A program made the position numbers and the translations under genes. The notes under the pieces were generated by a model, which worked only from the letters and a program-made list of their open reading frames with translations, had not been told where the DNA came from and ran no database searches. 64,000 bases of DNA from Clostridia bacterium (GTDB lineage: Bacteria > Bacillota > Clostridia > Christensenellales > DTU072): assembly GCA_035409945.1 (NCBI GenBank), contig DAONQC010000006.1, positions 12,570 to 76,569 of the forward strand, in the 5' to 3' direction. This document shows, piece after piece, positions 3,623 to 52,667 of the stretch; within the stretch, counting starts at the first letter, position 1, and every line of letters starts with the position of its first letter.

Positions 3623-3890
3623 CCCATTGACAATAACGAGACTTTAGGGGGTGTCTTATGTCGTTGTAATTAAGCCAGTTGTTGTATTCGTTTATATAGT
3701 TTTTAGAAAAATAAGGCACATTGATAATAATGAGACTTTAGGGGGCGTCTTATGCCGTGTTAATTAAGGAATTAGTAGTATTCATTTACATATATTACTC
3801 TAACTACTAAGGCTCGTTGGCAATGATGAGACTTTTTGGCATCCTATGGTGTGGCAATAGAGTTAGTTGTCATAATAAGCGCAACAGTAA
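3623..3890 (+). repeat. Three degenerate tandem repeats of about 91-97 nt
   Basis: Units start near 3623, 3714 and 3811. Shared core is TTGA(C/T)AATAA(C/T)GAGACTTTAGGGGG(T/C)GTCTTATG. Confidence 0.75.
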
Positions 3891-23805: not shown

Positions 23806-24417
23806 TTAGGAGCTAAAAGAGGTTAGTAATGACCGTATGGTTTCAAATAGAGGCGTAGGGAAGTTTACTCCCCAGCGGTTGGATAGAAATTTTAGTTCAG
23901 TTTCATATTCACAGATTAGGTCTTTAAAATTGGGTTTTAAAAAGCTACATAAAGAAGTTATAAAATCAACCTTAATATGTTTCTCAACTTCATATAGTGA
24001 GGCAAAGGCCATAATTTTTGCGATGTAACATTCCAGTGTTCCTGCAGTACATTCCTCAAAGTCAACTCGTACACACTTGAAATCAGGGGTAACTATATAG
24101 TTTCTAAAGTTTTCGTCAAAGGTAATTTTTTTTGTAGTTGAGTGAATGTAAAAAATTGTATTTGCTAGAGATTCAGCAAGTTTTTTAGAAACTTCTGTAT
24201 CGGAACTAAGGTAATAATCTAAAAGTAAGGTTCCCTTTACATAGCTCATTTCTATACAGTTATCGGATAGTTGGTTTATGAAACTAGGGGCAAATTCCCC
24301 CTGTAATTTTTTAAGCATGCTAACTTCTGTCTTTAGTGCTTCTTTATTACTAAAGGTTTTTTCAATGTTGCTATCTTTATTTAGTACTACGTTATTTTTT
24401 CTACTTGCAAAAACCAT
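23806..24417 (-). CDS. Hypothetical protein with degenerate protein-kinase-like layout (last gene of ECF operon)
   Basis: Bud32/RIO-like N-lobe pattern (EKTF...LKTEVSMLKKL...MSYVKG) and a VDFEEC (DFG-like) segment. The catalytic HxD...N is not conserved (NFRNYIV). Confidence 0.45.
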   Translation of the reverse strand: MVFASRKNNVVLNKDSNIEKTFSNKEALKTEVSMLKKLQGEFAPSFINQLSDNCIEMSYVKGTLLLDYYLSSDTEVSKKLAESLANTIFYIHSTTKKITFDENFRNYIVTPDFKCVRVDFEECTAGTLECYIAKIMAFASLYEVEKHIKVDFITSLCSFLKPNFKDLICEYETELKFLSNRWGVNFPTPLFETIRSLLTSFSS

Positions 24418-24466: not shown

Positions 24467-25219
24467 TTATTTACTATCATCAACAAACTCAAGGCAGATT
24501 TTTCCGCCTTTTTGAAATCCTTTTAATTCTTTAACTACGCCAGTAACCACATTTTTAAGTATGGATTCAACAAAAGGGACCATATAAATATTTTTGTCAT
24601 TAATAGTAAGTTTTACTTTGCTGTTTTTTAAAACACAGGCATTTATATCTACTTCGCCTTTTAAGTATTTAGAAAGAAAGGTTCTACAGTCCATACCACA
24701 CGCACTACAGCACTCTTTATCAATATCGTACATAAGAGATGGAGTTTTTTCGATTATTAAATCTACTAGTTTTTTGGTGTCGGTTATGCCATTTATTATT
24801 GGAAGATCTTTGTATGTCCCAGTATGAGCGTTAGCAAACCTTCCACTTATAGCAAAGGTGAGTGGGGATATTTTAGGCTCTCCATCTTCTGTTGCAACTG
24901 CGATTTCTGGAACAACTGCATCATGCACTCCCTCGAGTATAACAAAGTCCTGATTGTAATGAGAAAGAAGGTCATATATAGGCATATGTCCTTTATATAA
25001 AACATCAGTTTCGTTAGCCGAACGTGCAGTTACAGTATCCGAACCTGCCTGTCTATGTCTCCAGGTGTTTTTGCCTTCTGTGTCAATAGCAAAGGCTTCA
25101 AAGTGTATTTCTTTGACTGAACCTACAGTATATCCACGTGCTATTAGCTCCTTGATAATGTGCTCAATCGTGGCTGTTTTGCCACTACCACTTAGTCCTG
25201 TGATTGAAAAAACTTTCAT
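24467..25219 (-). CDS. MobB-like P-loop protein with extra Cys-rich C-terminal domain
   Basis: MKVFSITGLSGSGKTA Walker A and IDTEGKNTWRHRQAGSDTV, as in MobB. The C-terminal part carries CCSACGMDC...C. Confidence 0.6.
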   Translation of the reverse strand: MKVFSITGLSGSGKTATIEHIIKELIARGYTVGSVKEIHFEAFAIDTEGKNTWRHRQAGSDTVTARSANETDVLYKGHMPIYDLLSHYNQDFVILEGVHDAVVPEIAVATEDGEPKISPLTFAISGRFANAHTGTYKDLPIINGITDTKKLVDLIIEKTPSLMYDIDKECCSACGMDCRTFLSKYLKGEVDINACVLKNSKVKLTINDKNIYMVPFVESILKNVVTGVVKELKGFQKGGKICLEFVDDSK

Positions 25220-25511: not shown

Positions 25512-26261
25512 CTAAAAATGTACTAGTACACCATGGAAATACATGCCAGCTAAAAATACTCCAGCAAACAGTAGGGAGATAACAACAAGGAGGCAGTCTA
25601 TTGCTCCCATTTTTAATTCTCTTAGCATAGTTCTTTTTTTGTATGCTCTAAAACCTCTAACTTGCATGCTTTTTGCAAGCTCTTCACTTCTCATTATGCA
25701 GCCAGATATTGTGGGGGATATAAGGTATGCATACACTTTTACTTTTTTAGCAAGATTTAGTTTTTTAATATCAATTCCTCGCATAGCGATAGCATTGAGT
25801 CTACTTCTAAATTCCTCACTAAATATGGGTATAAATCTAAGCGATATGCTGGTCATAAAAGCAAGTTCATATGGCATTTTCAATTTAAGTAAGGCATCAA
25901 TCATTTCTCTTCCTTCTGTGCTTGCGGCAATTAAACCAGAAAGGAGTATAATGCTCATCCTTAGAATAAACTCTAGCGAAAACTGTAAGCCTTTGGTAGA
26001 TAGTAGGGCAATATTTCCAATAGGAATGAGAACGGTTCCACCTTTAATAGTCAGGCTTTGTACAATTGCAATAAATAGCAGTACTCCTAGAAAGTGTCTA
26101 AGTCTTTTAATTGCCATTAATAGTTCGGTTTTGAGACATAAGTTAATTAAGATACTAAGGAGTAGTATAATGCTAAGATAAATAACATCTTTAGCAAGCA
26201 CTGCTAAGGTAGTTAGTAACACAATAAATAATAACTTTACACGAGGATCAATTTTTTTCAT
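25512..26261 (-). CDS. ecfT: ECF transporter T component (EcfT/CbiQ family)
   Basis: Multi-TM protein with the conserved ARG motifs (AIAMRGI, SMQVRGF). Overlaps the upstream ATPase gene. Confidence 0.85.
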   Translation of the reverse strand: MKKIDPRVKLLFIVLLTTLAVLAKDVIYLSIILLLSILINLCLKTELLMAIKRLRHFLGVLLFIAIVQSLTIKGGTVLIPIGNIALLSTKGLQFSLEFILRMSIILLSGLIAASTEGREMIDALLKLKMPYELAFMTSISLRFIPIFSEEFRSRLNAIAMRGIDIKKLNLAKKVKVYAYLISPTISGCIMRSEELAKSMQVRGFRAYKKRTMLRELKMGAIDCLLVVISLLFAGVFLAGMYFHGVLVHF

Positions 26262-26910
26262 CTAAAACACCTCCGTGTAAATGTAAATTAGTGACATTAT
26301 TAAGGCTAGATAAAAACTCCTCATCATGGGAAATAATGATAGCGCCACCACCTTTATTTACAAATCCGTTGATGAAAGTCGTGATAAATAGAATTCCTTC
26401 ACTATCTATAGAAGAAGTGGGCTCATCTAAAATCAAAAAATCTACATTACGACTCATTATGGTGGCAAGTGCTAGACGTTGCTTTTCACCTAAAGACATA
26501 GAGAGTGGGTATCTGTCTTCAAATCCAGACAAATTAAAATCTTTAAGTAGCAAGTTAATTTCAGCTCTTTTTTCATCAGTTAGTTCCTTTTTTAGTTCAA
26601 ACGGGAAAGTCAATTCCTCTATGACTGTCGGGGCAAAAAGTTGTAAATCTGGGTTTTGAAATAAATATCCAATACTATCAGCTCTTTTACCTGCGGATAT
26701 TTTTTTAGCATTAATGTCATCAAAATATATATCACCACTAGTTGGATGTAAAAGTCCAAGTATTAATTTTCCAAGCGTTGTTTTCCCAGCACCATTTGGA
26801 CCTTTCAATGCGTATAACTTACCCGTTTCAAAAGTGTAGGTTATGTTAGATAGCACGAAGGGAGATTTTTTATTGTACTTAAAAGAGAGGTTTTCTAACT
26901 TAATTTGCAT
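26248..26910 (-). CDS. ECF transporter ATPase (short, about 220 aa)
   Basis: GPNGAGKTT Walker A, LSLGEKQRLALA signature, LILDEPTS Walker B. Confidence 0.85.
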   Translation of the reverse strand: MQIKLENLSFKYNKKSPFVLSNITYTFETGKLYALKGPNGAGKTTLGKLILGLLHPTSGDIYFDDINAKKISAGKRADSIGYLFQNPDLQLFAPTVIEELTFPFELKKELTDEKRAEINLLLKDFNLSGFEDRYPLSMSLGEKQRLALATIMSRNVDFLILDEPTSSIDSEGILFITTFINGFVNKGGGAIIISHDEEFLSSLNNVTNLHLHGGVLDEKN

Positions 26911-26955: not shown

Positions 26956-27621
26956 TTAAAGAACATAATTTTTACCTCTTTCAAGCGTAATTATTCTATT
27001 TGCAATTTTAAGGTCGTTTTCGTTATGGCTAATCATTACTACGCTTCCACCATTTTGGGCAAAATCTACGAGAATTTGTCGTATATCATCAATTTTTTCT
27101 TTATCTATTCTAGATGTAATTTCATCAGCTATTAAAACCTTCGGTTGCATGGTTAAAATAGAGGCTATTGCCACAAGTTGCTTTTCTCCACCTGATAGGG
27201 CATTGGTTTTAGCATGTTTTAGGTGTTCGATTTTACAGATTTTTAAAGCATCATTAATCCGCTTTTCCATTTCTTTTCTTTCGATATTTAAGTTTTCTGG
27301 GGCAAAAGCAAGTTCTTCAATTACAAGTGGTGAAAATAGCTGATTATCAGGGTTTTGGAAAATAAGGCCAAAAGCATTACATCTATCTGCAATGGTCATA
27401 TCGTTTAAATTGACGCCGTTATATAAAATTTCACCTCTAATATTATCACGCGCAAACTCTTCCTCAAATAGTCCAGCAAGACATAAGCAGAGGCTACTTT
27501 TACCGCTACCATTATGTCCTTTAAAACCAAGTATTTCACCTTCGTTTAGTTCAAACGAAAGGTTGTTAAAAATAACGGTTTTACCATACTTTAAGCCTAG
27601 TTTATTAACTTTTAAGTTCAT
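26956..27621 (-). CDS. ECF transporter ATPase (short, about 220 aa)
   Basis: GHNGSGKSS Walker A, LSGGEKQLVAIA signature, LIADEITS Walker B. Confidence 0.85.
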   Translation of the reverse strand: MNLKVNKLGLKYGKTVIFNNLSFELNEGEILGFKGHNGSGKSSLCLCLAGLFEEEFARDNIRGEILYNGVNLNDMTIADRCNAFGLIFQNPDNQLFSPLVIEELAFAPENLNIERKEMEKRINDALKICKIEHLKHAKTNALSGGEKQLVAIASILTMQPKVLIADEITSRIDKEKIDDIRQILVDFAQNGGSVVMISHNENDLKIANRIITLERGKNYVL

Positions 27622-27799
27622 ATGAAACCCTATTACATATAGTCTTATTTATTTATATTTATCCTAGTTCATTTAGTGTAAACGAACATTTATTGATATA
27701 TTCAAGTCTAGATTTTAAGCTCATACGCAATCCGATACATTTAGTATTGTTCGTTTACGCTTATTCTATTCATTTGGTTCAAACTAAATCCTATATACT

Positions 27800-28369
27800 C
27801 TATCCTATATTAACCTCGGTTAATAGTTTACATCTATGTTGTGAAAAAGTATCTGATACTCTTATTACTACATAAGGGCCACCATCTTCTCCTTCTAGGG
27901 TGTGGGCAGAAGTGACAATTCCTTTATTAAAATCAATACCATTTACTTTATATGCTATAAAGACATTATCGGGCGTGAGTACATCTTCAGCAGGGTATAA
28001 CTTGTTTGCACCATCACTTGCTTTAAAAGTAATGTTGCGAGCAATAGTCATATCTACATTTAGTGCCTTTAAGACGGCTTTAAGCTCAATCCCAGTGTAT
28101 GTTTTCTCAACTGGCTCACTAACGCTTGTATCATAAACATCTTTGAATGTTTTTTCCTCCACGCCTTCTAATGCAAGCAGTTCTTCTAAATTATATGAGC
28201 CAATCTCTTCACCATATGCAATAAGCCTTATCTTCTCTTGGGCATAGAGTTCACGTTGTGGAGCATTTGCTTTTAAGTAAAGTGGTAAAAATATGGCAAA
28301 GCCTACAATTAGTGCCGCTACTATAATTATTGCGATTATTACAGGTTTTGATAATGTTATCTTTTTCAT
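27800..28369 (-). CDS. N-terminally membrane-anchored exported protein with one copy of the operon's shared module
   Basis: TM helix PVIIAIIIVAALIVGFAIFL, then YTGIELKAVLKAL...FKASDGANKLYPAEDV...FIAYKVNG...GGPYVVIRV...KLLTEVNI. Confidence 0.55.
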   Translation of the reverse strand: MKKITLSKPVIIAIIIVAALIVGFAIFLPLYLKANAPQRELYAQEKIRLIAYGEEIGSYNLEELLALEGVEEKTFKDVYDTSVSEPVEKTYTGIELKAVLKALNVDMTIARNITFKASDGANKLYPAEDVLTPDNVFIAYKVNGIDFNKGIVTSAHTLEGEDGGPYVVIRVSDTFSQHRCKLLTEVNIG

Positions 28370-28590
28370 GAATTATCCCTTCCTTGCACGGATTTACACT
28401 TTCCGCGGGTTTTGATGATGTTATTTTTATTGAACCCTCTTCATATAGTCAGGTCTTTGTCTAATGTCTGTTTTGGTAGCGTTATTATTGTATCAATCTC
28501 TCCTAGAGGCTTTCAGCTAGTTTCTGTTTTGATAGTGCTGTTTTTATTAATTTCTCCTAGAGGTGTTTTTCATAGGTTATAGAAGTATAG
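28345..28590 (-). repeat. 5' echo: RBS plus first codons of the 27800-28369 gene, with three decayed upstream copies
   Basis: GTTTTG anchors at 28345, 28409, 28470 and 28526 (periods 64/61/56). Sense strand reads AGGGATAATTCATGAAAAAGATAACATTATCAAAAC versus AGGAGAAATTAATAAAAACAGCACTATCAAAAC and similar. Confidence 0.8.
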
Positions 28591-28600
28591 TTATTTCGTA

Positions 28601-30142
28601 TTAGTTATTGAAGACGAAGTAGGGCACATACATATCTTGATAGTCGAAGTAGCCGTGAGCGCCGTAAATATTCCCATCTTCATTGACAAATTCCATGTGT
28701 CCGTGGTCGGAAACCACAATTACTTTGCCATCAAATTGCATTTTTAAGTCTTTAACATAACTGTCTATTTCAATACATTTAATTTTAGCTTCTTGGCTTA
28801 ATGGACCATACTGGTGATTTACATCATCGATTTCATGGAAGTGCACAACGATTAAATCTGTCCCTTCGCTAATTGCGGTCTTGGCATTTTCATATGCCTC
28901 GTTATCGCTTAAAGAGTATATAGGGTCAATGCTGGTTATTATTAAATTCCCATTACCTTCTATATATTTCATCTTTATTTCTCTGTCATCAAACTCATAC
29001 ATATATTTTGCGAGGTAAAACACATCTGGGGGATAGGGTTTAAGTACAGCTCGGGTTTTATTAACGCTAAAATTAATACCAGTATGGCTAGGAGGCTGAC
29101 CTGTCAGCATTGATGCTAGAGCAACGGGAGATATAGCGTTGTATGTCGAAGTTGCGCATCCTTTAGATAGTGAGGCTTTTAAAATATCTAAATCGTTTTC
29201 GTATATGTTTGCCTGAATCCAAGAAAACCCATCGGTAATAATTAGCATAACTTTTTCGCTACTCTCTCCTGAAGTTTTCATCTCATCAAACACATCAAGA
29301 ATTGTCTTAGTTGCGTTAGTTGCGATACCTTTTATGCCATCTCCTGTATCTTTAACAATGATGTTTCTCCTTCGCCAAGCAAGTAAGGTATTGTCTGCAT
29401 TTTTAATAATATTTCCATTTGCTAAATACAAAACATTATTGTCTCTACCCGTGAATGAGTTCACAGTCATAGTGTCGGGCATATATTTATCAGCTCTATT
29501 TTTACCCATTATATTTTCTGCAGTCTTTGAAAACAGTTTTAGTTTTGCTTCCCCATATGTTATGAAATCAGTTTTTTCTTCTGTTAATATTTTGAGTCCA
29601 GGGGCATAGCGTAACCTGTAATCATTGGGGGTATTAGATAGGTCTTTTAATGGCTCTAGTATTTCGTTTGGATCTTTTGCGATTACAGTTATTTCGGAGA
29701 CGTTTTTAATATTTGTGCATTTTGGATAATTAGGTGCATGAACGTTAATAATTCCTTCTCCATCTGAATATAGATATATTTTATCTGTAAGATTTGCATC
29801 GATAAGGGCGCTTACGCCGTCAGTAGCGGATGTAATCATGAGATAGTTTTCGCTTGCTCTTAGCAATTGATGTTCGTTAATTTCATCTAAAAATGTCTGT
29901 AAATCCCAACCTTTATTTTTAATTTCTTCCCCATCCTTTTCGTATGTATATTCAACCATCTGCTCGTCATAAGCGGTACAAGAAAAACCGGCACCAACAA
30001 TGTCTCCATCAAATAAAATATGAGCTGGGGGAGTCTCATCATTATTTGGAAGCTCATTAGTTTCAGGCTTACACGCCGTAACTGTAATCACACAAATTAA
30101 AGCCATTAAAACTAAAAGTATAAATGCAAATTTTCTTTTCAT
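28601..30142 (-). CDS. Lipoprotein: N-terminal shared module fused to an NPP/alkaline-phosphatase-superfamily phosphodiesterase
   Basis: Lipobox VTAC. DGFSW, ISPVALASMLTGQPPSHTGI, HFHEIDDVNHQYGP and VSDHGH match nucleotide pyrophosphatase/phosphodiesterase metal and nucleophile motifs. Confidence 0.7.
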   Translation of the reverse strand: MKRKFAFILLVLMALICVITVTACKPETNELPNNDETPPAHILFDGDIVGAGFSCTAYDEQMVEYTYEKDGEEIKNKGWDLQTFLDEINEHQLLRASENYLMITSATDGVSALIDANLTDKIYLYSDGEGIINVHAPNYPKCTNIKNVSEITVIAKDPNEILEPLKDLSNTPNDYRLRYAPGLKILTEEKTDFITYGEAKLKLFSKTAENIMGKNRADKYMPDTMTVNSFTGRDNNVLYLANGNIIKNADNTLLAWRRRNIIVKDTGDGIKGIATNATKTILDVFDEMKTSGESSEKVMLIITDGFSWIQANIYENDLDILKASLSKGCATSTYNAISPVALASMLTGQPPSHTGINFSVNKTRAVLKPYPPDVFYLAKYMYEFDDREIKMKYIEGNGNLIITSIDPIYSLSDNEAYENAKTAISEGTDLIVVHFHEIDDVNHQYGPLSQEAKIKCIEIDSYVKDLKMQFDGKVIVVSDHGHMEFVNEDGNIYGAHGYFDYQDMYVPYFVFNN

Positions 30143-30376
30143 TTATTTTTCCTCGTCTACTACTATGCTATCCATCTGCCTAGCACGTCGCAATTTGAAT
30201 GTGCTCTCACTAGTTCCATTATCCACTTCGCCATTTTCATTTTGTCTTTCAGATACCTGCGCATCCTTCCAATGAAATCTTATTACTTAATTAGTCATTT
30301 TCATCCATTATCCTGCCAGCTATCTCAGCCTCGTCTGTCTAAGCTTTGGCATATTTTCATTGGCCAGATTGCTATA
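30143..30376 (-). repeat. 3' echoes (about 3 copies, 80-86-nt period) of the S-component gene
   Basis: TTAGTCATCCTCATCCATTATGATGC (30377, real end) versus TTAGTCATTTTCATCCATTATCCTGCC (30291). Weaker copies lie near 30205 and 30150. Confidence 0.75.
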
Positions 30377-31318
30377 TTAGTCATCCTCATCCATTATGAT
30401 GCTAATTATTTCTGTTTCTTCTAACCAATCATCATTTACCTTTCTATCTGCTTCAGTATCTAAACTGTCCTCATCGTCTAAGTCATCTATGTCGCTATTT
30501 GAATTATTTTCCTTATGTAATTTAGTGGTGCTAGCCAAGGATTTCTTTTCTTCCAAGTGGTCATAATTGGTCTTATTATCTATTTCAGCGCTTAAATTGA
30601 CATCATTTTTAAAATCATCTACATCACTATTTGAATTGTCTTCCTTTTGCAAATCGGTGGTGTTAGATAGGTTTTTTGCCTCTTCTTTGTCGATTTCATC
30701 CCAGCTGATAGTATCTTCATCTTTTCTTTTAATAGCGACTTTTGTTTTTACTCGGGATAGTATTCCCGTTTTAACAATTGCTAGATAGACTAGATACGCG
30801 ACTACTCCTCCAAGAGCACCAGACAACGAAGCTGCGAGTAGAGTGAAAAGCAAGGGGTATATGCTTAGTCTAAAAAACAAGAGGTTAGATCCGAAGGTTC
30901 CTGCCATATTGGCTAGTATTGTAGAAAGCATAAAGTGAAGTATATTATATCCATCTCGAGGCCTATATAAAAACACAAGTTCTACAAATATCGCTGGTGT
31001 CATGTATGTCAGTGCAGTCCACACTCCGTGACTTCCGGGTGCTCCAGTTGTAACCATAACTATCGTTTGAACTGCGGATATAAGCAGGGCAGAACCGCGT
31101 TTGCCAACAAGGACAATCGAAAGGGGAAGCCAAAGCATATATAGGCCACCAGCTAAAGCTCCTCCAGGGATGCCAAGAGGGCCTGTTATCATACGCACTA
31201 AATTACCAGCTACCACTTTAAAGCCTACGCTAGCAGCAGTAAGCATAGCTAGTAATACTAGGTCAAAAATACTAAATGCTTTCAACCCTTTTAGTTTGCG
31301 TTTTATAGGTTTATCCAT
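30377..31318 (-). CDS. ECF-transporter S-component-like membrane protein with long acidic repeat tail
   Basis: About 190 aa of Gly-rich TM helices (ITGPLGIPGGALAGGLYMLW...). The 110-aa acidic C-tail contains two repeats of about 44 aa (…NTTDLQKEDNSNSDVDDF… / …STTKLHKENNSNSDIDDL…). Confidence 0.6.
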   Translation of the reverse strand: MDKPIKRKLKGLKAFSIFDLVLLAMLTAASVGFKVVAGNLVRMITGPLGIPGGALAGGLYMLWLPLSIVLVGKRGSALLISAVQTIVMVTTGAPGSHGVWTALTYMTPAIFVELVFLYRPRDGYNILHFMLSTILANMAGTFGSNLLFFRLSIYPLLFTLLAASLSGALGGVVAYLVYLAIVKTGILSRVKTKVAIKRKDEDTISWDEIDKEEAKNLSNTTDLQKEDNSNSDVDDFKNDVNLSAEIDNKTNYDHLEEKKSLASTTKLHKENNSNSDIDDLDDEDSLDTEADRKVNDDWLEETEIISIIMDEDD

Positions 31319-31417
31319 ATATGTTCTCTACTACACCGTTCTTGTAAATCTGTAATATACAAGGTTTTATCTAACTGTTGTTAACCCCATTTATAGGCTA
31401 GTTGTATTATATCTCAT

Positions 31418-31448
31418 GACACAAAGGCGCCTCAATAAAGAGGCGTCC
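31418..31448 (-). terminator. Weak intra-operon hairpin/terminator
   Basis: GGCGCCTC (31426-31433) / GAGGCGTC (31440-31447). On the minus strand it is followed by TTTGTGT. Confidence 0.35.
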
Positions 31449-31494
31449 TATTATGTTTAGTTGTGTCTAAATGAATGTGTGGATTCAATAGTTT

Positions 31495-32856
31495 TTAAGC
31501 CACCGCTTCGTTTAAAACGATTTTTGCTACCTTTTTATTGACGGACTTACTAGCGGTGCTAGTGCTATCAGATAGGTATCTTGGAGAACTGCTATCTGCT
31601 TCGAACTTTCCATCATCTGTTATTTTACCGATTGTGATGTATGCGTTATCCATATTATCAGTTTCGGTTGTATAGTTGCCTGTGGAATCATAGGATGTAA
31701 CTTTAGTTATTTCTGGTATTGTGACTTTCAGTTTTGGAGTAATATTAGATAGCTTATATGCAAGATATATTACTGAAGTTTCATTTCCCATAGAATTAAC
31801 GGTGGTCATTGTAACATTTTCTCTTGCTACTTTTTTCAAGACATCATTAGTTATTGTTTTGAGAAGAGTAGCATTATCATATAGTTCAACATTTACCTCA
31901 ACAGTGGTTAAGGGATCGTTGAATATGACTTTCGCTATTTTTTTGTTAATAGATTTACTAGAATTGCTGGTGCTGTCAGATATATATCTAGGGCCATCGG
32001 CATCTTCAACAAACTTACCGTTTTCTACAAAGCCTATTGAGATGTATGCATTAGTGATGTTTTCTGCTTCAACTAAATAATCATCGGTAGCGCGAGAAAA
32101 TACGCTAGTAATTTCTGGGAGTGTGAAATTTTTTAGTTTTGGAGTAATGTTAGATAGCTTATATGCAAGATATGTTATGGAAGTTTCTGTTCCCATAGAA
32201 TTAACAGTGGTCATTGTAACATTTTCTCTTGCTGTTTTTTTCAATTCTTTATTAGTAATGGTGCCTAAAAGGGTAAGGCTATCATACAATTCAACGTTAA
32301 CATTAACAGTGGCTAATGGGTCATTAAATATGACTTTTGCAAGTTTTTTATTAATTGATTTGCTTTCGGTACTTTGGCTGTCAGATACATATCTAGGAGA
32401 ATCTGCATCAGCTACAAACGCGCCGTCTTCTTCTAAACCTATAGTGATATATGCATTGGCAATATTTTTAGCCTCGACAATATAGTTATCTGAAGCAACA
32501 GCATAGACACTATTAATTTCTGGTAGTGTAAGGTCAAGGGCGGTAACTATGTCTGTAAGCTTATATGCAATGTATACCACCGAGGTTGTAGTGCCATAAT
32601 CGTTTACGGTATTCATACTAAGTTTATGTTGCTCAACATTTGCAAACGAAGCATTTACGGCAGTCCCTAGCAGTTCAATACCATTATATATCTCAACATT
32701 GATATTTAAATCAGCAGGAATTTGATAAGCATTCGGGGTATTATTAACATCGTCTGCTGGATCGGTTTCGACCTTATTGCATGCAAATAAAGTCATGCTT
32801 AGCACTAATACTGAAATAACAAGAAATAGTGCGAGTAATTTTTTGTTCATTTTCAT
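31495..32856 (-). CDS. Lipoprotein made of three tandem copies of the shared module
   Basis: Lipobox LFAC. Three 135-aa repeats each end ...GPRY(I/V)SDS...SKSINKK(I/L)AKVIFNDPL. Confidence 0.6.
   Translation of the reverse strand: MKMNKKLLALFLVISVLVLSMTLFACNKVETDPADDVNNTPNAYQIPADLNINVEIYNGIELLGTAVNASFANVEQHKLSMNTVNDYGTTTSVVYIAYKLTDIVTALDLTLPEINSVYAVASDNYIVEAKNIANAYITIGLEEDGAFVADADSPRYVSDSQSTESKSINKKLAKVIFNDPLATVNVNVELYDSLTLLGTITNKELKKTARENVTMTTVNSMGTETSITYLAYKLSNITPKLKNFTLPEITSVFSRATDDYLVEAENITNAYISIGFVENGKFVEDADGPRYISDSTSNSSKSINKKIAKVIFNDPLTTVEVNVELYDNATLLKTITNDVLKKVARENVTMTTVNSMGNETSVIYLAYKLSNITPKLKVTIPEITKVTSYDSTGNYTTETDNMDNAYITIGKITDDGKFEADSSSPRYLSDSTSTASKSVNKKVAKIVLNEAVA
31500..32715 (-). 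repeat. Intragenic 405-nt tandem repeat x3
   Basis: AATATGACT anchors at 31922 and 32327. Antisense shadow ORFs at 31721-32080 and 32123-32485 translate almost identically. Confidence 0.85.
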
Positions 32857-32900
32857 TTTCTTCTCTCTCCTTTGTTTATATATATTTGCCTAAAGGATTA

Positions 32901-33053
32901 GGCTATTTCCTTAAGTTTTAGTGTTGTATCACTACATCCGATTAACAATGCTTGCTAGTTCTTTATTGGCTATTTCCTTGGGTTAGTGTTATATCACTAC
33001 ATCCGATTAACAATGCTTGCTGGTTTTTATCGGCTATTTCCTTAAGCTTATTG
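32901..33053 (-). repeat. 3' echoes (2 copies, about 65-nt period) of the 438-aa lipoprotein gene
   Basis: GGCTATTTCCTTAAG... units start at 32901, 32968 and 33032; the third contains the real stop. The two echoes are about 90% identical to each other. Confidence 0.8.
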
Positions 33054-34337
33054 TTATATCTCTACATTTATGGCTTTAAATACGATTGATTTACCTTCGT
33101 AATTAAGAGTGTATTTACCATCTTCATTTTTTGTGACTTTAGCGCCTAGAATTTGCTCATATGACACATCTACTTTTGTATTATCAATTTTCGTTACCGA
33201 ATACTCTGTATAAGGTTTAAACATGTTAAGTAAAATTAGCAAATCTTTTACATTAAACGAGCCATCAGTTTTTCCATCTACATCTGGGTCATAACGTTTC
33301 ATTGCAACATCAAAAGAGACAATTGCAGAGTGAAATACAGATATAGAAAGAACATTTTTGACTGACATACCGTCAGGGAAAGCGGGACCGTCTAAAATAG
33401 GTGTTCTAGTTAGTGTCCAGCTAGCGTCAGCATCACAAATGCCAGATGTTAATATGTATGCATTGCTATATATGTCGTAGGTTGCCCATTTTTGATATTC
33501 TCTGTATGTGTCAGAGCCTGAAATATAGTCCCAAGCTACTACACTCATTTTATCTATTTCTTGTACACCTTTTAATATGTTGGTTGGACCTATCATTTTT
33601 GAAATGTCTAACCCATAGTACGTGTAGTTACCGTCACTTTCTTCTTTTGTATATTGTCCGCCATATGTAGTAGAGTTTATTTCATCAAGAGAATAGAGGG
33701 AGTATACGGTAGGAGTCTTTAGTAACTCAGTAGAAAAATCGATTTTGTATAAATATTTAACCCAGGTGTTTGCAACTTGGTCATGGAATATAGCTCTTAA
33801 AGCACCACTGCCTGATTTTATTGTTAAAACTTCGCCGTCTAATTCAAGAGCAATTACCATCTTGCTCCCACGACCATCGCTATCGAATACTTCATCAGTG
33901 GCAACTGCTACGTAGCCATCTGTTCCATAAAGGGATAAACTTCCATATACATTAATTGGAGCACTTTCTGTATAGTCAGAAAGTAAGTCTTCTAAATATA
34001 CGCCTTTAACAGTATGTGGAATTAAATTACCATCATCGTCTTGTTTATCACTTGCAACAGCGGGGTTATCTTCATCAAATATAACGGGTTTAGTTTCATA
34101 AAGTGTTTTAATTGTAGATTTCTTTATTACAACATCTTCGAGTAAATTCCCATCTACTTTCTGTAATCCAGATAGCGTAAGGGTGTAGTCATCGTCCGTA
34201 ACGGGGGCAGTGTTATTAGTATTATTGGTATTATCAGGTTCAGTATCGGGCTTATCGTTACAACCGACAAAAAATGTCATAGAAATAATGAGTGCAAATA
34301 CAATACTAAAAAGAATAACAGTCTTAAGTTTTTTCAT
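33054..34337 (-). CDS. Lipoprotein with two copies of the shared module and a dockerin/EF-hand-like segment
   Basis: Lipobox FFVGC. VKGVYLEDLL...YGTDGYVAV...IALELDGEVL...GALRAIF...NTWVKYLYKIDF, and DVDGKTDGSFNVKDLLILL. The MKKLKT start (34337) follows GGGGAG. Confidence 0.6.
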   Translation of the reverse strand: MKKLKTVILFSIVFALIISMTFFVGCNDKPDTEPDNTNNTNNTAPVTDDDYTLTLSGLQKVDGNLLEDVVIKKSTIKTLYETKPVIFDEDNPAVASDKQDDDGNLIPHTVKGVYLEDLLSDYTESAPINVYGSLSLYGTDGYVAVATDEVFDSDGRGSKMVIALELDGEVLTIKSGSGALRAIFHDQVANTWVKYLYKIDFSTELLKTPTVYSLYSLDEINSTTYGGQYTKEESDGNYTYYGLDISKMIGPTNILKGVQEIDKMSVVAWDYISGSDTYREYQKWATYDIYSNAYILTSGICDADASWTLTRTPILDGPAFPDGMSVKNVLSISVFHSAIVSFDVAMKRYDPDVDGKTDGSFNVKDLLILLNMFKPYTEYSVTKIDNTKVDVSYEQILGAKVTKNEDGKYTLNYEGKSIVFKAINVEI

Positions 34338-34500
34338 AATAAAGAGCTCCCCATAAAATAAAAAGTTCACGTTCCCACGTGAAAAGAGCTCTTTAGAAGA
34401 GAGAGTGTTCTTTTCGCAATGGAAGGGTAATCCCTTTCGAAGTTACCCCCGGTCTAAACCCATAGCATTGCCTTAGGTGTTTAGACTCGAACATGTCTAT
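34338..34500 (-). promoter_or_regulatory. Structured 5' leader (riboswitch-like, class not recognised) of the ECF-lipoprotein operon
   Basis: 8-bp helix GTCTAAAC/GTTTAGAC (34452-34459 / 34479-34486), hairpin GGGTAA...TTACCC, possible pseudoknot GCAATG/CATTGC, terminator-like TTCACGT-GGGA-ACGTGAA plus T-run (34350-34383), and AAAGAGCTC able to pair with the GAGCTCTTT overlapping the RBS. Confidence 0.5.
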
Positions 34501-34530
34501 ATGATATATAAATATACAGTATTTTGTCAA
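34501..34530 (-). promoter_or_regulatory. Putative promoter of the ECF-lipoprotein operon
   Basis: Perfect TTGACA (34525-34530, minus strand), 18-nt spacer, TATCAT (34501-34506). Confidence 0.4.
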
Positions 34531-34571
34531 GAATTAGCACTTTTTAGAGTGAGGACCTACTTACTGTTGCA

Positions 34572-34810
34572 CTTACTGCGACAACTAGCATTACCATGTT
34601 TTGCAGTCGGTTATCACACCCTGCTCGATGTCTTAGCTCCCTCTCAACTAACTATGACAACTAATATGAACCTGTCTTGCCTGATGGGCTATCTACCGCT
34701 GGCTTACTATGACAACTAACATATCGTGTCTTGCTCAATGACCTATATGCCACATAACTTACTATAACAAGTGCTATCATGTCCATGATAAATTTCTTCC
34801 AATCGCAGAT
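34572..34810 (+). repeat. Four degenerate tandem copies of the dispersed intergenic repeat
   Basis: CTTACT(G/A)(C/T)GACAACTA... units start at 34572, 34648, 34703 and 34758 (periods 76/55/55). Confidence 0.75.
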
Positions 34811-45105: not shown

Positions 45106-47058
45106 ATGAATCAAGAAAAGACAGATAAAGTAAATTTAAAAATTAATAAAGAATTAGGGATGAAGATTTTGTTTGGGATAGCAGCGTGTGTTGCTATATT
45201 AGCCACAATAACTATCTTCATCTTTTTATTTATAAAAGGCGTCCCCGCGATTAGAAGAATTGGCTTGGGAAACTTTTTATTTGGTCAAACCTGGCGACCA
45301 GATACGCATGATACATATGAAGGTGAGATATCTGGGATTTATGGGATATTCCCTATGATTATAGGGACTTTGTATGCTACGGTAGGAGCTGTAATAATTG
45401 GTGGAATATTAGGATTTTTTACTGCTGTATTTCTATCAAGGTTCTGCCCGCCAAAAATAAAGCCAATTTTAACCCAGCTTGTGAATTTGCTTGCAGGGAT
45501 TCCTTCAGTTGTGTATGGATTTTTTGGCATGCAACTATTACTTCCTCTACTTGGAGAAGTTTCGCCAAACGGCTCAGGTTCTGGGATTTTAGCGGTATCT
45601 ATCATATTAGGTGTTATGATTTTACCTACCATTGTTGCACTCTCAAAAACTTCTATCGATGCAGTCCCTGAAGCATATTATACTGGTGCTCGTGCAATAG
45701 GTGATAGCCATGCAGGAGCGGTGTTTGGAGCAGTGGTTCCAGCAGCAAAGTCTGGTATAGCGGCAAGCTTTATTTTAGGGATAGGCAGGGCTGTCGGAGA
45801 GACTATGGCGGTTATCATGCTTGCTGGAAATAACCCAGTTATCCCTACAACGCTATTTTCATCCTTTAGAACAATGACAGCTAATGTTGTTCTGGAAATG
45901 GGCTATGCAGGTGAATTACAACTTGGTGCATTAATAGCAACTGGGTGTATATTATTTTTCTTTGTGTTAGTAATTAACACACTCTTCGGATTAATACGCG
46001 GAAGCTCTGAAAAAGTCGAAGGGAAAAACAAGCTAGGTTTGTTTATCAAAAAGATACAGAGAAAAAGGTCAACTAACAACCTCTCTGATTTAGCAAGTAA
46101 CATATCTGAAAATCGAGTCGATAACATTAAAAAAGAATCTAAATTCAAGCAAGTTATGAAGGGCGTAAAAAGAGATATACAGCGATTTAGAGAGGGGTTT
46201 CAATCTTTATTAAACCGTAGGAACAAGGTGATTATTCAGATAAAGACGATACTTTGTTATGTTTGTACTATAGTGGCTGTAACTGCACTTATTACTATTG
46301 TGGTATTTATATTTGTGAAAGGAGTGCCGAATATTACTTGGGACTTGATAAGCCGCAATTTTAGTTATGGTGAAGATCCAACCATAATGCCATCTATAGT
46401 TGTTACCATAATGCTGATAGCTTTAAGTATGGTAATAGCTTTACCTTTAGGTATTTGCACAGCGGTCTTTTTATCAGAATATACTAAAAAAGGCAATAAA
46501 TTTATTAAGATAATACGTGGTGCACTAGAAATATTATCGGGCATCCCTTCCATCGTTTATGGACTGTTCGGTATGGTCTTTTTCTGTGTAATGCTGAAGC
46601 TTGGAACTAGTGTTCTTGCCGGTTCGTTGACGGTAGCGATTATGATAATACCAGTTATATGTCGCTCAACTGAAGAGAGCTTAAAGATGGTACCACAAAG
46701 TTATCGAGAAGGTAGTTTTGCGCTTGGCGCCGGTAAGGCTAGAACTATTTTTAAAGTTGTTATACCTTCTGCTATGCCAGGCATTTTAGCTGCTACCATA
46801 TTAGCGGTTGGGAGGGTTATAAGCGAGTCTGCGCCGCTAATGTTCACTATGGGCGCATCGCTTAAAGGAGTTCCTCGAACCGGTTACTTAGGTAGTGGGA
46901 CATCTTTAGCTGTTGCATTATATATATTAGCAGGGGAAGGATTGTACATAAAAGAAGCTTATGCGACTGCCTGTGTGCTCATATTAATAATACTTACACT
47001 CAACATATTATCAACACTGCTCGTCAGCAGACTGCAAAAGAAGTTCGTTGGAAAATAA
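45106..47058 (+). CDS. Fused PstC-PstA phosphate ABC permease
   Basis: Two MetI-type permease halves (EAA-like AYYTGARAIG... and SYREGSFALGAGK...) joined by a basic linker of about 70 aa. Confidence 0.85.
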   Translation: MNQEKTDKVNLKINKELGMKILFGIAACVAILATITIFIFLFIKGVPAIRRIGLGNFLFGQTWRPDTHDTYEGEISGIYGIFPMIIGTLYATVGAVIIGGILGFFTAVFLSRFCPPKIKPILTQLVNLLAGIPSVVYGFFGMQLLLPLLGEVSPNGSGSGILAVSIILGVMILPTIVALSKTSIDAVPEAYYTGARAIGDSHAGAVFGAVVPAAKSGIAASFILGIGRAVGETMAVIMLAGNNPVIPTTLFSSFRTMTANVVLEMGYAGELQLGALIATGCILFFFVLVINTLFGLIRGSSEKVEGKNKLGLFIKKIQRKRSTNNLSDLASNISENRVDNIKKESKFKQVMKGVKRDIQRFREGFQSLLNRRNKVIIQIKTILCYVCTIVAVTALITIVVFIFVKGVPNITWDLISRNFSYGEDPTIMPSIVVTIMLIALSMVIALPLGICTAVFLSEYTKKGNKFIKIIRGALEILSGIPSIVYGLFGMVFFCVMLKLGTSVLAGSLTVAIMIIPVICRSTEESLKMVPQSYREGSFALGAGKARTIFKVVIPSAMPGILAATILAVGRVISESAPLMFTMGASLKGVPRTGYLGSGTSLAVALYILAGEGLYIKEAYATACVLILIILTLNILSTLLVSRLQKKFVGK

Positions 47059-51988: not shown

Positions 51989-52064
51989 TGGTGGGAACAA
52001 CAGGGCTCGAACCTGTGACCCCATGCGTGTAAAGCATGTGCTCTCCCAGCTGAGCTATGCTCCC
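51989..52064 (-). tRNA. tRNA-Val (anticodon UAC)
   Basis: GGGAGCATAGCTCAGCTGGGAGAGCACATGCTTTACACGCATGGGGTCACAGGTTCGAGCCCTGTTGTTCCCACCA. Cloverleaf is foldable and CCA is encoded. Confidence 0.9.
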
Positions 52065-52231
52065 ATCGAACATTTAGCGCATGTAGAGAAGGTCTAAACA
52101 TTTCTCTTGCTATGGATAAGCATAACAAAGCGAGAGTTAAAAGTCTAGTATTTTTTTATTTATCATAATAACATTGAGACCGAGACCTTAAATTGATTGA
52201 AAATATTTTGGTATAAAAGGCAGTGCTACAT

Positions 52232-52360
52232 TTCGATTATAGTCGAAGAAAATATGTAAATTTATAAAAGTTTTGATTACAGTCGAAAAATATAGGTAAA
52301 TTAGAAAAAGTCTGGTTATGGTCGAAGAGAAGATGGTGGTGGCAAAGATTTGGAAGTGTT
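52232..52360 (+). repeat. Three degenerate tandem repeats of about 42 nt between tRNA-Glu and tRNA-Val
   Basis: TTCGATTATAGTCGAAGAAAATATGTAAATT... / TTTGATTACAGTCGAAAAATATAGGTAAATT... / CTGGTTATGGTCGAAGAGAAGATGG... Confidence 0.7.
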
Positions 52361-52373
52361 TTAAACTTAACCA

Positions 52374-52404
52374 TATAAAAAGCATCCGTCGAAATGCGGA
52401 TGCT
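52374..52404 (-). terminator. Terminator after the fMet-Met-Glu tRNA cluster
   Basis: AGCATCCG (52381-52388) / CGGATGCT (52397-52404). The minus strand continues TTTTAT. Confidence 0.6.
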
Positions 52405-52416
52405 TTGTATATTCTT

Positions 52417-52492
52417 TGGTGACCTCAAGGGGATTCGAACCCCTACTGTCGCCGTGAAAGGGCGGTGTCCTAACCTACTAGACGATGAGGCC
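52417..52492 (-). tRNA. tRNA-Glu (anticodon UUC)
   Basis: GGCCTCATCGTCTAGTAGGTTAGGACACCGCCCTTTCACGGCGACAGTAGGGGTTCGAATCCCCTTGAGGTCACCA. Confidence 0.9.
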
Positions 52493-52501
52493 ATCAACGT
52501 T

Positions 52502-52578
52502 TGGTAGCGGCGGTCGGAGTCGAACCAACGACCTGCCGGGTATGAACCGGCCGCTCTAACCAACTAAGCTACGCCGCC
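52502..52578 (-). tRNA. tRNA with CAU anticodon (elongator Met, or Ile2 if lysidinylated)
   Basis: GGCGGCGTAGCTTAGTTGGTTAGAGCGGCCGGTTCATACCCGGCAGGTCGTTGGTTCGACTCCGACCGCCGCTACCA. The anticodon stem lacks the three G-C pairs of initiators. Confidence 0.85.
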
Positions 52579-52592
52579 AAGATTGATGGTAT

Positions 52593-52667
52593 TGGTAGCG
52601 GGGGAGGGATTCGAACCCACGACCTCTGGGTTATGAGCCCAGCAAGCTACCTCTGCTCCACCCCGCG
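52593..52667 (-). tRNA. Initiator tRNA-fMet (CAU)
   Basis: CGCGGGGTGGAGCAGAGGTAGCTTGCTGGGCTCATAACCCAGAGGTCGTGGGTTCGAATCCCTCCCCCGCTACCA. Has a 1-72 mismatch (C1/U72) and GGG/CCC in the anticodon stem. Confidence 0.9.

Follow-up and report, generated by a model that had tools for sequence, protein, structure and literature searches.

The 64-kb window examined here (64,000 nucleotides of contig DAONQC010000006.1 from the Clostridia bacterium assembly GCA_035409945.1, with all positions counted within it) contains, on its minus strand, an RNA leader in front of a ten-gene operon for an energy-coupling factor (ECF) transporter. This leader is a member of the known riboswitch family for the molybdenum and tungsten cofactors (Moco and Tuco), specifically of the type that lacks stem P3, and as an RNA it is nothing new in kind. 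Judging from the sequence, it is very probable that the leader, transcribed from a TTGACA/TATCAT promoter, exerts OFF control over the 10-gene ECF uptake operon when the Mo/W cofactor is sufficient. The initial annotation had presented the leader as an unclassified element that resembled none of the consensus motifs considered, including that of Moco, and had named a match to a known Rfam class as the outcome that would speak against this view; RF01055 indeed matches above its gathering score. The sequence elements listed there are all present on the minus strand of 34100-34800, and the proposed riboswitch layout, in which an aptamer at the 5' side precedes a terminator, is supported by the RF01055 match and by conservation of the terminator. 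The interest of the locus lies in the regulon, the RNA being one more P3-less member, from a slightly divergent subgroup that is partly missed by the Rfam model.

The P3-less aptamer and its relatives

RF01055 (Moco RNA motif, molybdenum/tungsten cofactor riboswitch) matches window positions 34391-34504 (minus strand) with 47 bits, compared with a gathering score of 36, and with an E value of 4e-8 for a search space comprising the whole 64-kb window, in which it is the sole Rfam match other than tRNAs. The match is full-length (model positions 1-135), and positions 59-73, i.e., the P3 stem, are deleted in the alignment to the Rfam model. A covariance model of the P3-less aptamer (R1) was built from the window and two relatives, and the remaining sequences were realigned with Infernal; since MAFFT alignments including loci L020 and L005 misplaced P4, the seed was confined to these three well-aligned sequences. 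R1 scores 104 bits at the window aptamer, which is present in a single copy in the window. The promoter and the aptamer are composed of the following features:

34501-34530, minus strand: sigma-70-type promoter, TTGACA (34530-34525), 18-nt spacer, TATCAT (34506-34501); 11 of 12 consensus positions match
34391-34504, minus strand: Moco/Tuco aptamer of the P3-lacking type, core 34405-34494 (RF01055 match and model R1)
34406-34493, minus strand: P1, closing helix of the aptamer, UGUUC (34493-34489) / GAACA (34410-34406) (Rfam alignment, folding)
34452-34486, minus strand: P2, 8-bp helix GUCUAAAC (34486-34479) / GUUUAGAC (34459-34452) plus CC/GG, with a short apical stem
34460-34477, minus strand: 11-nt GAAA-tetraloop receptor forming an internal loop of P2, CCUAAG (34477-34472)...UAUGG (34464-34460)
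34424-34449, minus strand: P4 hairpin GGGGUAACUUC / GGGAUUACCCU with a GAAA tetraloop cap at 34438-34435 (Rfam alignment, folding)
34411-34423, minus strand: P5, UC (34423-34422) / GA (34415-34414), loop CAUUGC (Rfam alignment, RNAalifold)

The 8-bp helix described in the initial annotation is thus P2 of the RF01055 alignment, and its GGGUAA...UUACCC hairpin (34448-34425) is part of P4. The segment CUUCGAAAGGGA, taken there for the hairpin loop, turns out to continue the helix (U-G, U-G, C-G) beneath the GAAA tetraloop. P3 is absent between P2 and P4, and this junction reads CG in the window versus C-GAUA in most relatives, while a conserved AAA (34413-34411) connects P5 with P1. The junction nucleotides CGAG on the 5' side and AAAG on the 3' side are kept (family consensus ..CCGAG.. 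/ ..GGAAAGGAG); the P1 and P5 nucleotides that flank the junctions are off-consensus in the window (UUCGAG, GCGAAAAGAAC), and these changes are compensated. A pseudoknot that had been suggested between GCAAUG (34471-34466) and CAUUGC (34421-34416) did not survive comparison: the 6-nt match is found in the window only and shrinks to 2-4 nt in the other 53 aptamers, in which the complementarity between the P2 and P5 loops is no better than for shuffled loops and the P5 loop is conserved irrespective of the P2 loop sequence. The pairing therefore looks like a chance match. A leader peptide (a 33-codon frame from the ATG at 34494) was also considered and rejected; that ATG belongs to the 5' strand of P1, which reads CUCC in most relatives.

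Conservation and covariation upstream of orthologous operons, proposed in the initial annotation as a check, were both found. Homologues of the substrate-specific (S) component of the transporter (88, in uncultured Clostridia and relatives) were used as a profile, with which 80 genomic loci were retrieved. Among the first 14 loci, four had an upstream RF01055 match in Rfam, and R1 yielded 53 matches in 51 of the 80, all of them upstream of the operon and on its strand; together with the window aptamer they make up a 54-sequence alignment. Counting L005, which was found by Rfam and missed by R1, the aptamer is present in 52 of 80 loci. In 15 of the 28 aptamer-less loci, less than 2.5 kb of sequence is available upstream of the S gene, so that a leader would be invisible there. 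Standard pairs fill 90.6% of cells in the 54 aptamers, compared with 40-50% in controls with the pairing partners shifted by 1-3 columns, and compensatory change on both sides is seen in 27 of 32 pairs, counts that are inflated to some extent because the alignment was fitted to the model. RNAalifold, applied to the same alignment, predicts P1, P2, P4 and P5 unaided, with 22 of 27 pairs compensated. The window P1 differs from the CUCC/GGAG of relatives in a compensated manner, and compensatory changes are seen in all eight pairs of P2, in eight of the 11 pairs of P4, and in the outer pair of P5 (C-G to U-A in 16-17 sequences). The GAAA tetraloop occurs in essentially all 54 aptamers and P3 in none. 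About ten sequences, that of the window among them, form a subgroup with GUUC/GAAC instead of CUCC/GGAG in P1, U-A instead of C-G as the outer P5 pair, and the CG junction; intermediate forms join this subgroup to consensus-type members within one alignment. The operon is widespread among anaerobes of the Clostridia, Christensenellales and Tissierellia, and is also present in some Dehalococcoidia.

According to Regulski et al. (2008, PMC2408646), the Moco motif comprises five stems and a tetraloop with its receptor, falls into two classes with or without P3, and uses terminator as well as ribosome-binding site (RBS) expression platforms. The window aptamer shares with this motif (RF01055; E. 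coli moaA leader) the P1-P2-P4-P5 arrangement, the P4 GAAA tetraloop docking to the P2 receptor, the CGAG and AAAG part of the junction nucleotides, the association with Mo/W-cofactor genes and a gene-OFF expression platform, which is predicted here. It differs in the lack of P3, in the compensated changes of P1 and P5 (GUUC/GAAC, U-A), in the CG junction between P2 and P4, and in regulating an ECF transporter rather than moa, mod or tup genes. With the Tuco riboswitches of Eubacterium limosum (wor1, tupABC, fetABC and focA leaders), for which a 2024 study describes P3-less members with terminators or RBS sequestors and applies the same P3 criterion (PMC11725836), it shares the absence of P3, anaerobic Firmicutes hosts and a terminator/RBS platform. 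The searchable text of PMC2408646 and PMC11725836 contains no operon for an ECF transporter, a sulfite-oxidase (SUOX)-fold lipoprotein or a pyrophosphatase. Tandem P3-less aptamers precede the same operon type in two metagenome-assembled genomes (MAGs) of Clostridia/Alkaliphilus (L053:4322-4694, L074:7993-8287); tandem and triple arrangements have likewise been noted in Syntrophomonas wolfei (PMC2408646).

The promoter and the expression platform

The perfect TTGACA that had been pointed out is present at 34530-34525 and, together with TATCAT, forms the best sigma-70-like site in the surrounding 11 kb, from which transcription is predicted to start at about 34494-34496. In 12 orthologous leaders, a TTGAC -35 element and a TGnTAnnAT-like -10 element lie at an equal distance before the aptamer. 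The leader between the predicted start and the ATG thus measures about 157-160 nt, slightly less than the 165 nt estimated previously, and a 176-nt leader segment is more stable than its dinucleotide shuffles (z = -3.5). A Shine-Dalgarno sequence (GGGGAG, 34352-34347) precedes the start codon (ATG, 34337-34335), with which a lipoprotein signal peptide begins (MKKLKTVILFSIVFALIISMTFFVGC). Three further elements lie between the aptamer and this start codon or overlap its surroundings:

34355-34383, minus strand: intrinsic terminator UUCACGU-GGGA-ACGUGAA (34383-34366) followed by CUUUUUAUUUU (terminator scan)
34374-34422, minus strand: predicted anti-terminator CCAUUGCGAAAAGA (34422-34409) / UCUUUUCACGUGG (34387-34374, including the terminator 5' arm) (folding)
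34341-34394, minus strand: possible RBS-sequestering helix AAAGAGCUC (34394-34386) / GAGCUCUUU (34349-34341), overlapping the Shine-Dalgarno GGGGAG (full-leader minimum-energy fold)

The terminator-like hairpin with its U-run, already recognized in the initial annotation, is recovered by the terminator scan and is conserved in L002, the closest relative for which the upstream region is available; there it reads UUCACAU-GGAA-AUGUGAA followed by U7, with one G-C pair replaced by A-U. About half of the 54 orthologous aptamers have a canonical terminator (8-12 bp stem and U-run) within 60 nt downstream. In many of these, the conserved ..GCGAAAAGG.. segment of the aptamer (GAAAAGA) has its complement in the terminator 5' arm, and RNAfold pairs the two in the minimum-energy folds of L002, L013, L015 and L016. 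In the window, the unconstrained minimum-energy fold up to the U-run (-44.7 kcal/mol) contains the anti-terminator and no terminator, and the terminator forms when P1 and P5 are forced (-36.1 kcal/mol). A further pairing in the window minimum-energy fold, between CAUGUUC of the P1 5' strand and GAACGUG of the terminator 3' arm, has no equivalent in L002 and was set aside as window-specific.

These folds suggest that the leader is most likely a transcriptional OFF switch. In the mechanism derived from sequence and energy models, transcription would start from the TTGACA/TATCAT promoter, and the aptamer (P1, P2 with its receptor, P4 with its GAAA tetraloop, and P5) is thought to bind a metal-pyranopterin cofactor. 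Without ligand, CCAUUGCGAAAAGA would pair with UCUUUUCACGUGG, block the terminator and allow transcription of the operon. When ligand is bound, the aptamer would retain CCAUUGCGAAAAGA, the hairpin UUCACGU-GGGA-ACGUGAA with its U-run would form, and transcription would stop before the first gene. A second helix across the ribosome-binding site may contribute translational repression, and the net effect would be feedback repression of the 10-gene ECF-type uptake operon at Mo/W cofactor sufficiency. Owing to its lability, the ligand does not lend itself to routine in-line probing.

Just upstream of the riboswitch promoter, the plus strand carries four direct copies of a motif of about 20 nt (CTTACTATGACAACTAAC), spaced 55-76 nt apart (34572-34777). 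Two further copies (2632-2649, 3862-3879) flank a noc/parB-like gene near 2.6-3.9 kb. The motif is non-palindromic and has five matches with at most three mismatches, compared with 0.05 expected.

The ECF operon and a possible cofactor salvage route

Downstream of the riboswitch lie ten minus-strand genes, from 33054-34337 to 23806-24417, the order of which is conserved across loci:

33054-34337, minus strand: gene 1, 427-aa lipoprotein with a SUOX-like (Oxidored_molyb) domain (PF00174, 21 bits, just under gathering)
31495-32856, minus strand: gene 2, 453-aa lipoprotein with three internal repeats of about 135 aa, conserved in close relatives
30377-31318, minus strand: gene 3, ECF S component of YkoE type (PF09819, 44 bits, gathering 25)
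28601-30142, minus strand: gene 4, lipoprotein with a type I phosphodiesterase / nucleotide pyrophosphatase domain (PF01663, 60 bits; operon position conserved)
27800-28369, minus strand: gene 5, membrane-anchored SUOX-fold protein, 189 aa (weak SUOX match, AlphaFold model)
26956-27621 and 26248-26910, minus strand: genes 6 and 7, two ECF ATPases (ABC_tran twice)
25512-26261, minus strand: gene 8, ECF T component (CbiQ)
24467-25219, minus strand: gene 9, MobB-type protein (molybdopterin-guanine dinucleotide biosynthesis protein B) with a C-terminal iron-sulfur-like extension (PF03205, 80 bits; TIGR00176 above cut-off)
23806-24417, minus strand: gene 10, 203-aa minimal RIO/Bud32-like kinase fold, the last conserved gene (profile match)

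The riboswitch sits in the leader of an operon that encodes MobB and SUOX-fold (Oxidored_molyb) proteins, which ties the operon to the Mo/W cofactor, and this arrangement is kept in 52 of 80 loci. An S component (PF09819), a T component (CbiQ) and two ABC_tran ATPases are co-encoded in one cluster, as is characteristic of Group I (dedicated) ECF transporters. Orthologues of the 427-aa lipoprotein follow the aptamer in most loci; its only cysteines are the lipobox Cys26 and Cys301, the latter outside the matched domain. In the 453-aa lipoprotein, the lipobox cysteine is the only one, and on sequence grounds the protein may be a triple SUOX-like domain. The ends of its repeats (..PRY.SDS.S..SKS.NKK.AK..) are similar to the motif at the C terminus of the 189-aa SUOX-fold protein. 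The S component is fused to a phosphodiesterase domain in one homologue (P0071) and to an Oxidored_molyb/PF00174 domain in two others (P0085, P0088), from which it appears that the operon proteins form one functional unit. The window S component also has a C-terminal third (30377-30750) consisting of an acidic low-complexity tail of about 120 aa with repeated K-E-(D/N)-N-S-N-S-D-(V/I)-D-D units; its homologues are mostly just 180-250 aa long.

The 203-aa protein, whose gene follows mobB in many loci, matches no Pfam or NCBIfam family. A profile from 24 of its orthologues matches the Rio2 kinase domain (E 1.4e-5), and its invariant residues K20, E31, D101, N106 and D119 constitute the minimal kinase set. 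An identical protein is found on 24 public contigs; in a Clostridia MAG it carries the annotation hypothetical. In the window, unusually long spacers (176-234 nt) separate the first six genes of the operon, whereas the genes of several relatives are near-contiguous. No convincing internal minus-strand terminator was found in the operon gaps (27621-34337).

Riboswitches for cofactors are known to precede ECF importers, for example those for thiamine pyrophosphate (ThiT/YkoEDC), flavin mononucleotide (RibU), tetrahydrofolate (FolT) and B12 (CbrT/CbiMNQO), and such pairs mark importers of the cofactor, its precursor or a metal. The window locus shares with them an OFF switch before an S-A-A'-T module, the S component being of the YkoE family (PF09819). 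It differs in the cofactor that is sensed, which is predicted to be a Mo/W-pyranopterin, and in encoding extracytoplasmic binding-protein-like lipoproteins, which are normally missing from ECF systems. Because an OFF riboswitch for a finished cofactor precedes the ECF module, an importer of the cofactor, a precursor or the metal may be suspected by analogy. In this respect, the most useful point of the initial annotation was that the ligand would hint at the substrate of the transporter; the predicted ligand class is the Mo/W pyranopterin cofactor.

The fold of the 189-aa protein bears on this question. Its AlphaFold model (pLDDT 93) has its best PDB matches in a fold search with the Moco domain of sulfite oxidase, PruR and YedY; a sequence-profile search of PDB with this family returned nothing useful, so that the link came from structure. 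It resembles PruR, a periplasmic pterin binder (PDB 7kos, 7kom; PMC11194511), in being a small, exported, stand-alone SUOX fold (TM 0.64-0.69 on the PruR side, identity 13-16%), and related operon proteins, like PruR, are without the Mo-ligand cysteine. It differs from PruR in that no DcpA-type signalling partner is present, in that proteins of the 189-aa type have their own conserved C-terminal cysteine (C180), and in that pterin binding is putative. All SUOX enzymes coordinate the metal via a conserved cysteine, which PruR, a non-enzymatic pterin binder, lacks (PMC11194511). In several operon SUOX-fold proteins (307 aa in L030, 163 aa in L028), cysteine is absent outside the lipobox, and with it the metal-ligand cysteine of SUOX molybdoenzymes.

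The most attractive reading of the operon, which from sequence can be offered only tentatively, is salvage of a Mo/W pyranopterin cofactor (Moco/Tuco, molybdopterin, or a dinucleotide or dephospho derivative). It is suggested by the co-occurrence of MobB with pterin-binder-like domains that are exported, a pyrophosphatase outside the cell and a kinase in the cytoplasm. The exported SUOX-fold lipoproteins without the metal-ligand cysteine would capture the pterin, and the nucleotide pyrophosphatase would remove dinucleotide or phosphate groups extracellularly. The YkoE-type ECF module would then take up the product, the RIO-like kinase and MobB would reactivate it inside the cell, and the Tuco-type riboswitch would switch off the system once the cofactor is abundant.

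It is somewhat unlikely that the operon imports tungstate or molybdate, or encodes genuine extracytoplasmic Mo/W enzymes, with no pterin import. B12 riboswitches do control ECF metal importers such as CbiMNQO (PMC13119186), yet the S component here is of the YkoE type (PF09819) and not of the CbiM/NikM type. In Sedimentibacter and Wukongibacter (L030:806-9972, L028:7887-9981), a distance of 2-9 kb separates the riboswitch from the S gene downstream, and the intervening genes encode SLH, propeller, FMN_bind and NapH-like 4Fe-4S proteins as well as SUOX proteins that exceed the Pfam threshold. The FMN_bind and NapH-like FeS proteins hint at an extracytoplasmic electron-transfer component, as would suit an enzyme system. 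Several SUOX-fold proteins, however, are cysteine-free beyond the lipobox, which argues against Mo/W coordination as in SUOX enzymes (PMC11194511); the export signals read as Sec/lipoprotein signals and not Tat; and an OFF switch repressed by the cofactor suits supply genes better than user enzymes.

In the literature searched, no description of such an operon or of a bacterial Mo/W-pyranopterin importer was found, a prior mention in the ECF survey of Rodionov et al. (2009) or in RegPrecise being possible, and the reports found on uptake of a Moco-type cofactor concern nematodes only. One review states that Moco differs from other cofactors in that most organisms cannot acquire it as a nutrient (PMC9026282). 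If salvage is true, the operon would provide the first example in bacteria of an importer for this cofactor, which is generally considered not to be taken up. The riboswitch serves as a functional label, linking a widespread unannotated ECF operon of anaerobes to Mo/W-cofactor homeostasis, and if the rule pairing cofactor riboswitches with ECF importers holds, the locus offers a concrete candidate, open to testing, for the uptake of molybdopterin-type cofactors by bacteria.

Metal, mode of control and genomic surroundings

Several observations count against a P3-less, tungsten-type, transcriptionally acting Moco/Tuco riboswitch, in addition to the inflated covariation counts mentioned above. 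The window subgroup departs from the family consensus in P1 (GUUC/GAAC versus CUCC/GGAG) and has a P2-P4 junction that is 3 nt shorter. At its gathering threshold, Rfam missed the close relatives L003, L006, L007, L008 and L010, all of which were found by R1. The terminator stem has just 7 bp (-8.3 kcal/mol), and the assignment of tungsten rather than molybdenum is based solely on a published correlation. Lastly, no W- or Mo-specific gene was detected among the approximately 30 larger of the 54 window open reading frames (at least 140 aa) that were scanned, and scans of the other window genes gave no Mo- or W-related gene beyond those of the operon.

The window RNA is putatively Tuco-responsive, an analogy that is drawn because the P3-less architecture correlates in the literature with tungsten-cofactor genes, as reported for the family in PMC2408646. 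The alternative, on the unlikely side in our estimation, is that the RNA senses Moco or does not discriminate between Mo and W, so that the absence of P3 would be uninformative on the metal. The link between P3 and the metal is indeed a correlation with stated exceptions (PMC2408646), the scanned window reading frames include no tungsten-specific gene such as tupA/wtpA or one for an AOR-type enzyme, and MobB and SUOX-fold domains usually carry molybdenum-related annotations. Nonetheless, 54 of 54 aptamers before this operon type are P3-less, their hosts are anaerobic Clostridia, Tissierellia and Dehalococcoidia, and P3-less members of E. limosum respond to tungsten limitation (PMC11725836). 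Moreover, in one relative, a Christensenellales MAG (L016:4368-7611), a tungsten-type aldehyde:ferredoxin oxidoreductase adjoins the riboswitch, lying immediately upstream of it together with ThiF/MoeB-like and FMN_bind genes.

It is considerably less probable that this RF01055-family RNA acts mainly at translation, with the AAAGAGCUC/GAGCUCUUU helix masking the ribosome-binding site and the short hairpin being ineffective as a terminator. The complementarity indicated in the initial annotation is real: a 9-bp helix covering part of the Shine-Dalgarno sequence is present in the full-leader minimum-energy fold, the terminator stem is short, and RBS-sequestering platforms are known in the family (PMC2408646; PMC11725836). 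However, the helix has no counterpart in L002, which retains the terminator with a compensatory change and U7; it shares hardly any of the segment competing with the aptamer, which leaves its dependence on ligand in question; and many orthologues have clear terminators. A translational layer via this helix, on top of the preferred transcriptional switch, is thus possible but unsupported.

That the leader represents a new riboswitch class with an unidentified ligand is very improbable: the deviating P1, P5 and P2-P4 junction sequences of the subgroup, the close relatives below the Rfam gathering score and the failure of the initial annotation to match it to a consensus are outweighed by a full-length RF01055 match (47 bits, E 4e-8), by helices, tetraloop and receptor, and CGAG and AAAG junction nucleotides shared with the family, by intermediates that bridge to consensus-type members, and by the Mo/W-cofactor genes of the operon.

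As regards the wider surroundings, a fused PstC-PstA phosphate permease (650 aa, 45106-47058) adjoins a PstS-like gene, and a cluster of four tRNAs was located by the Rfam scan at 51992-52667 on the minus strand. Together with noc/parB and gyrB-gyrA, which the window also contains, these features give it the appearance of a chromosomal region close to the origin.

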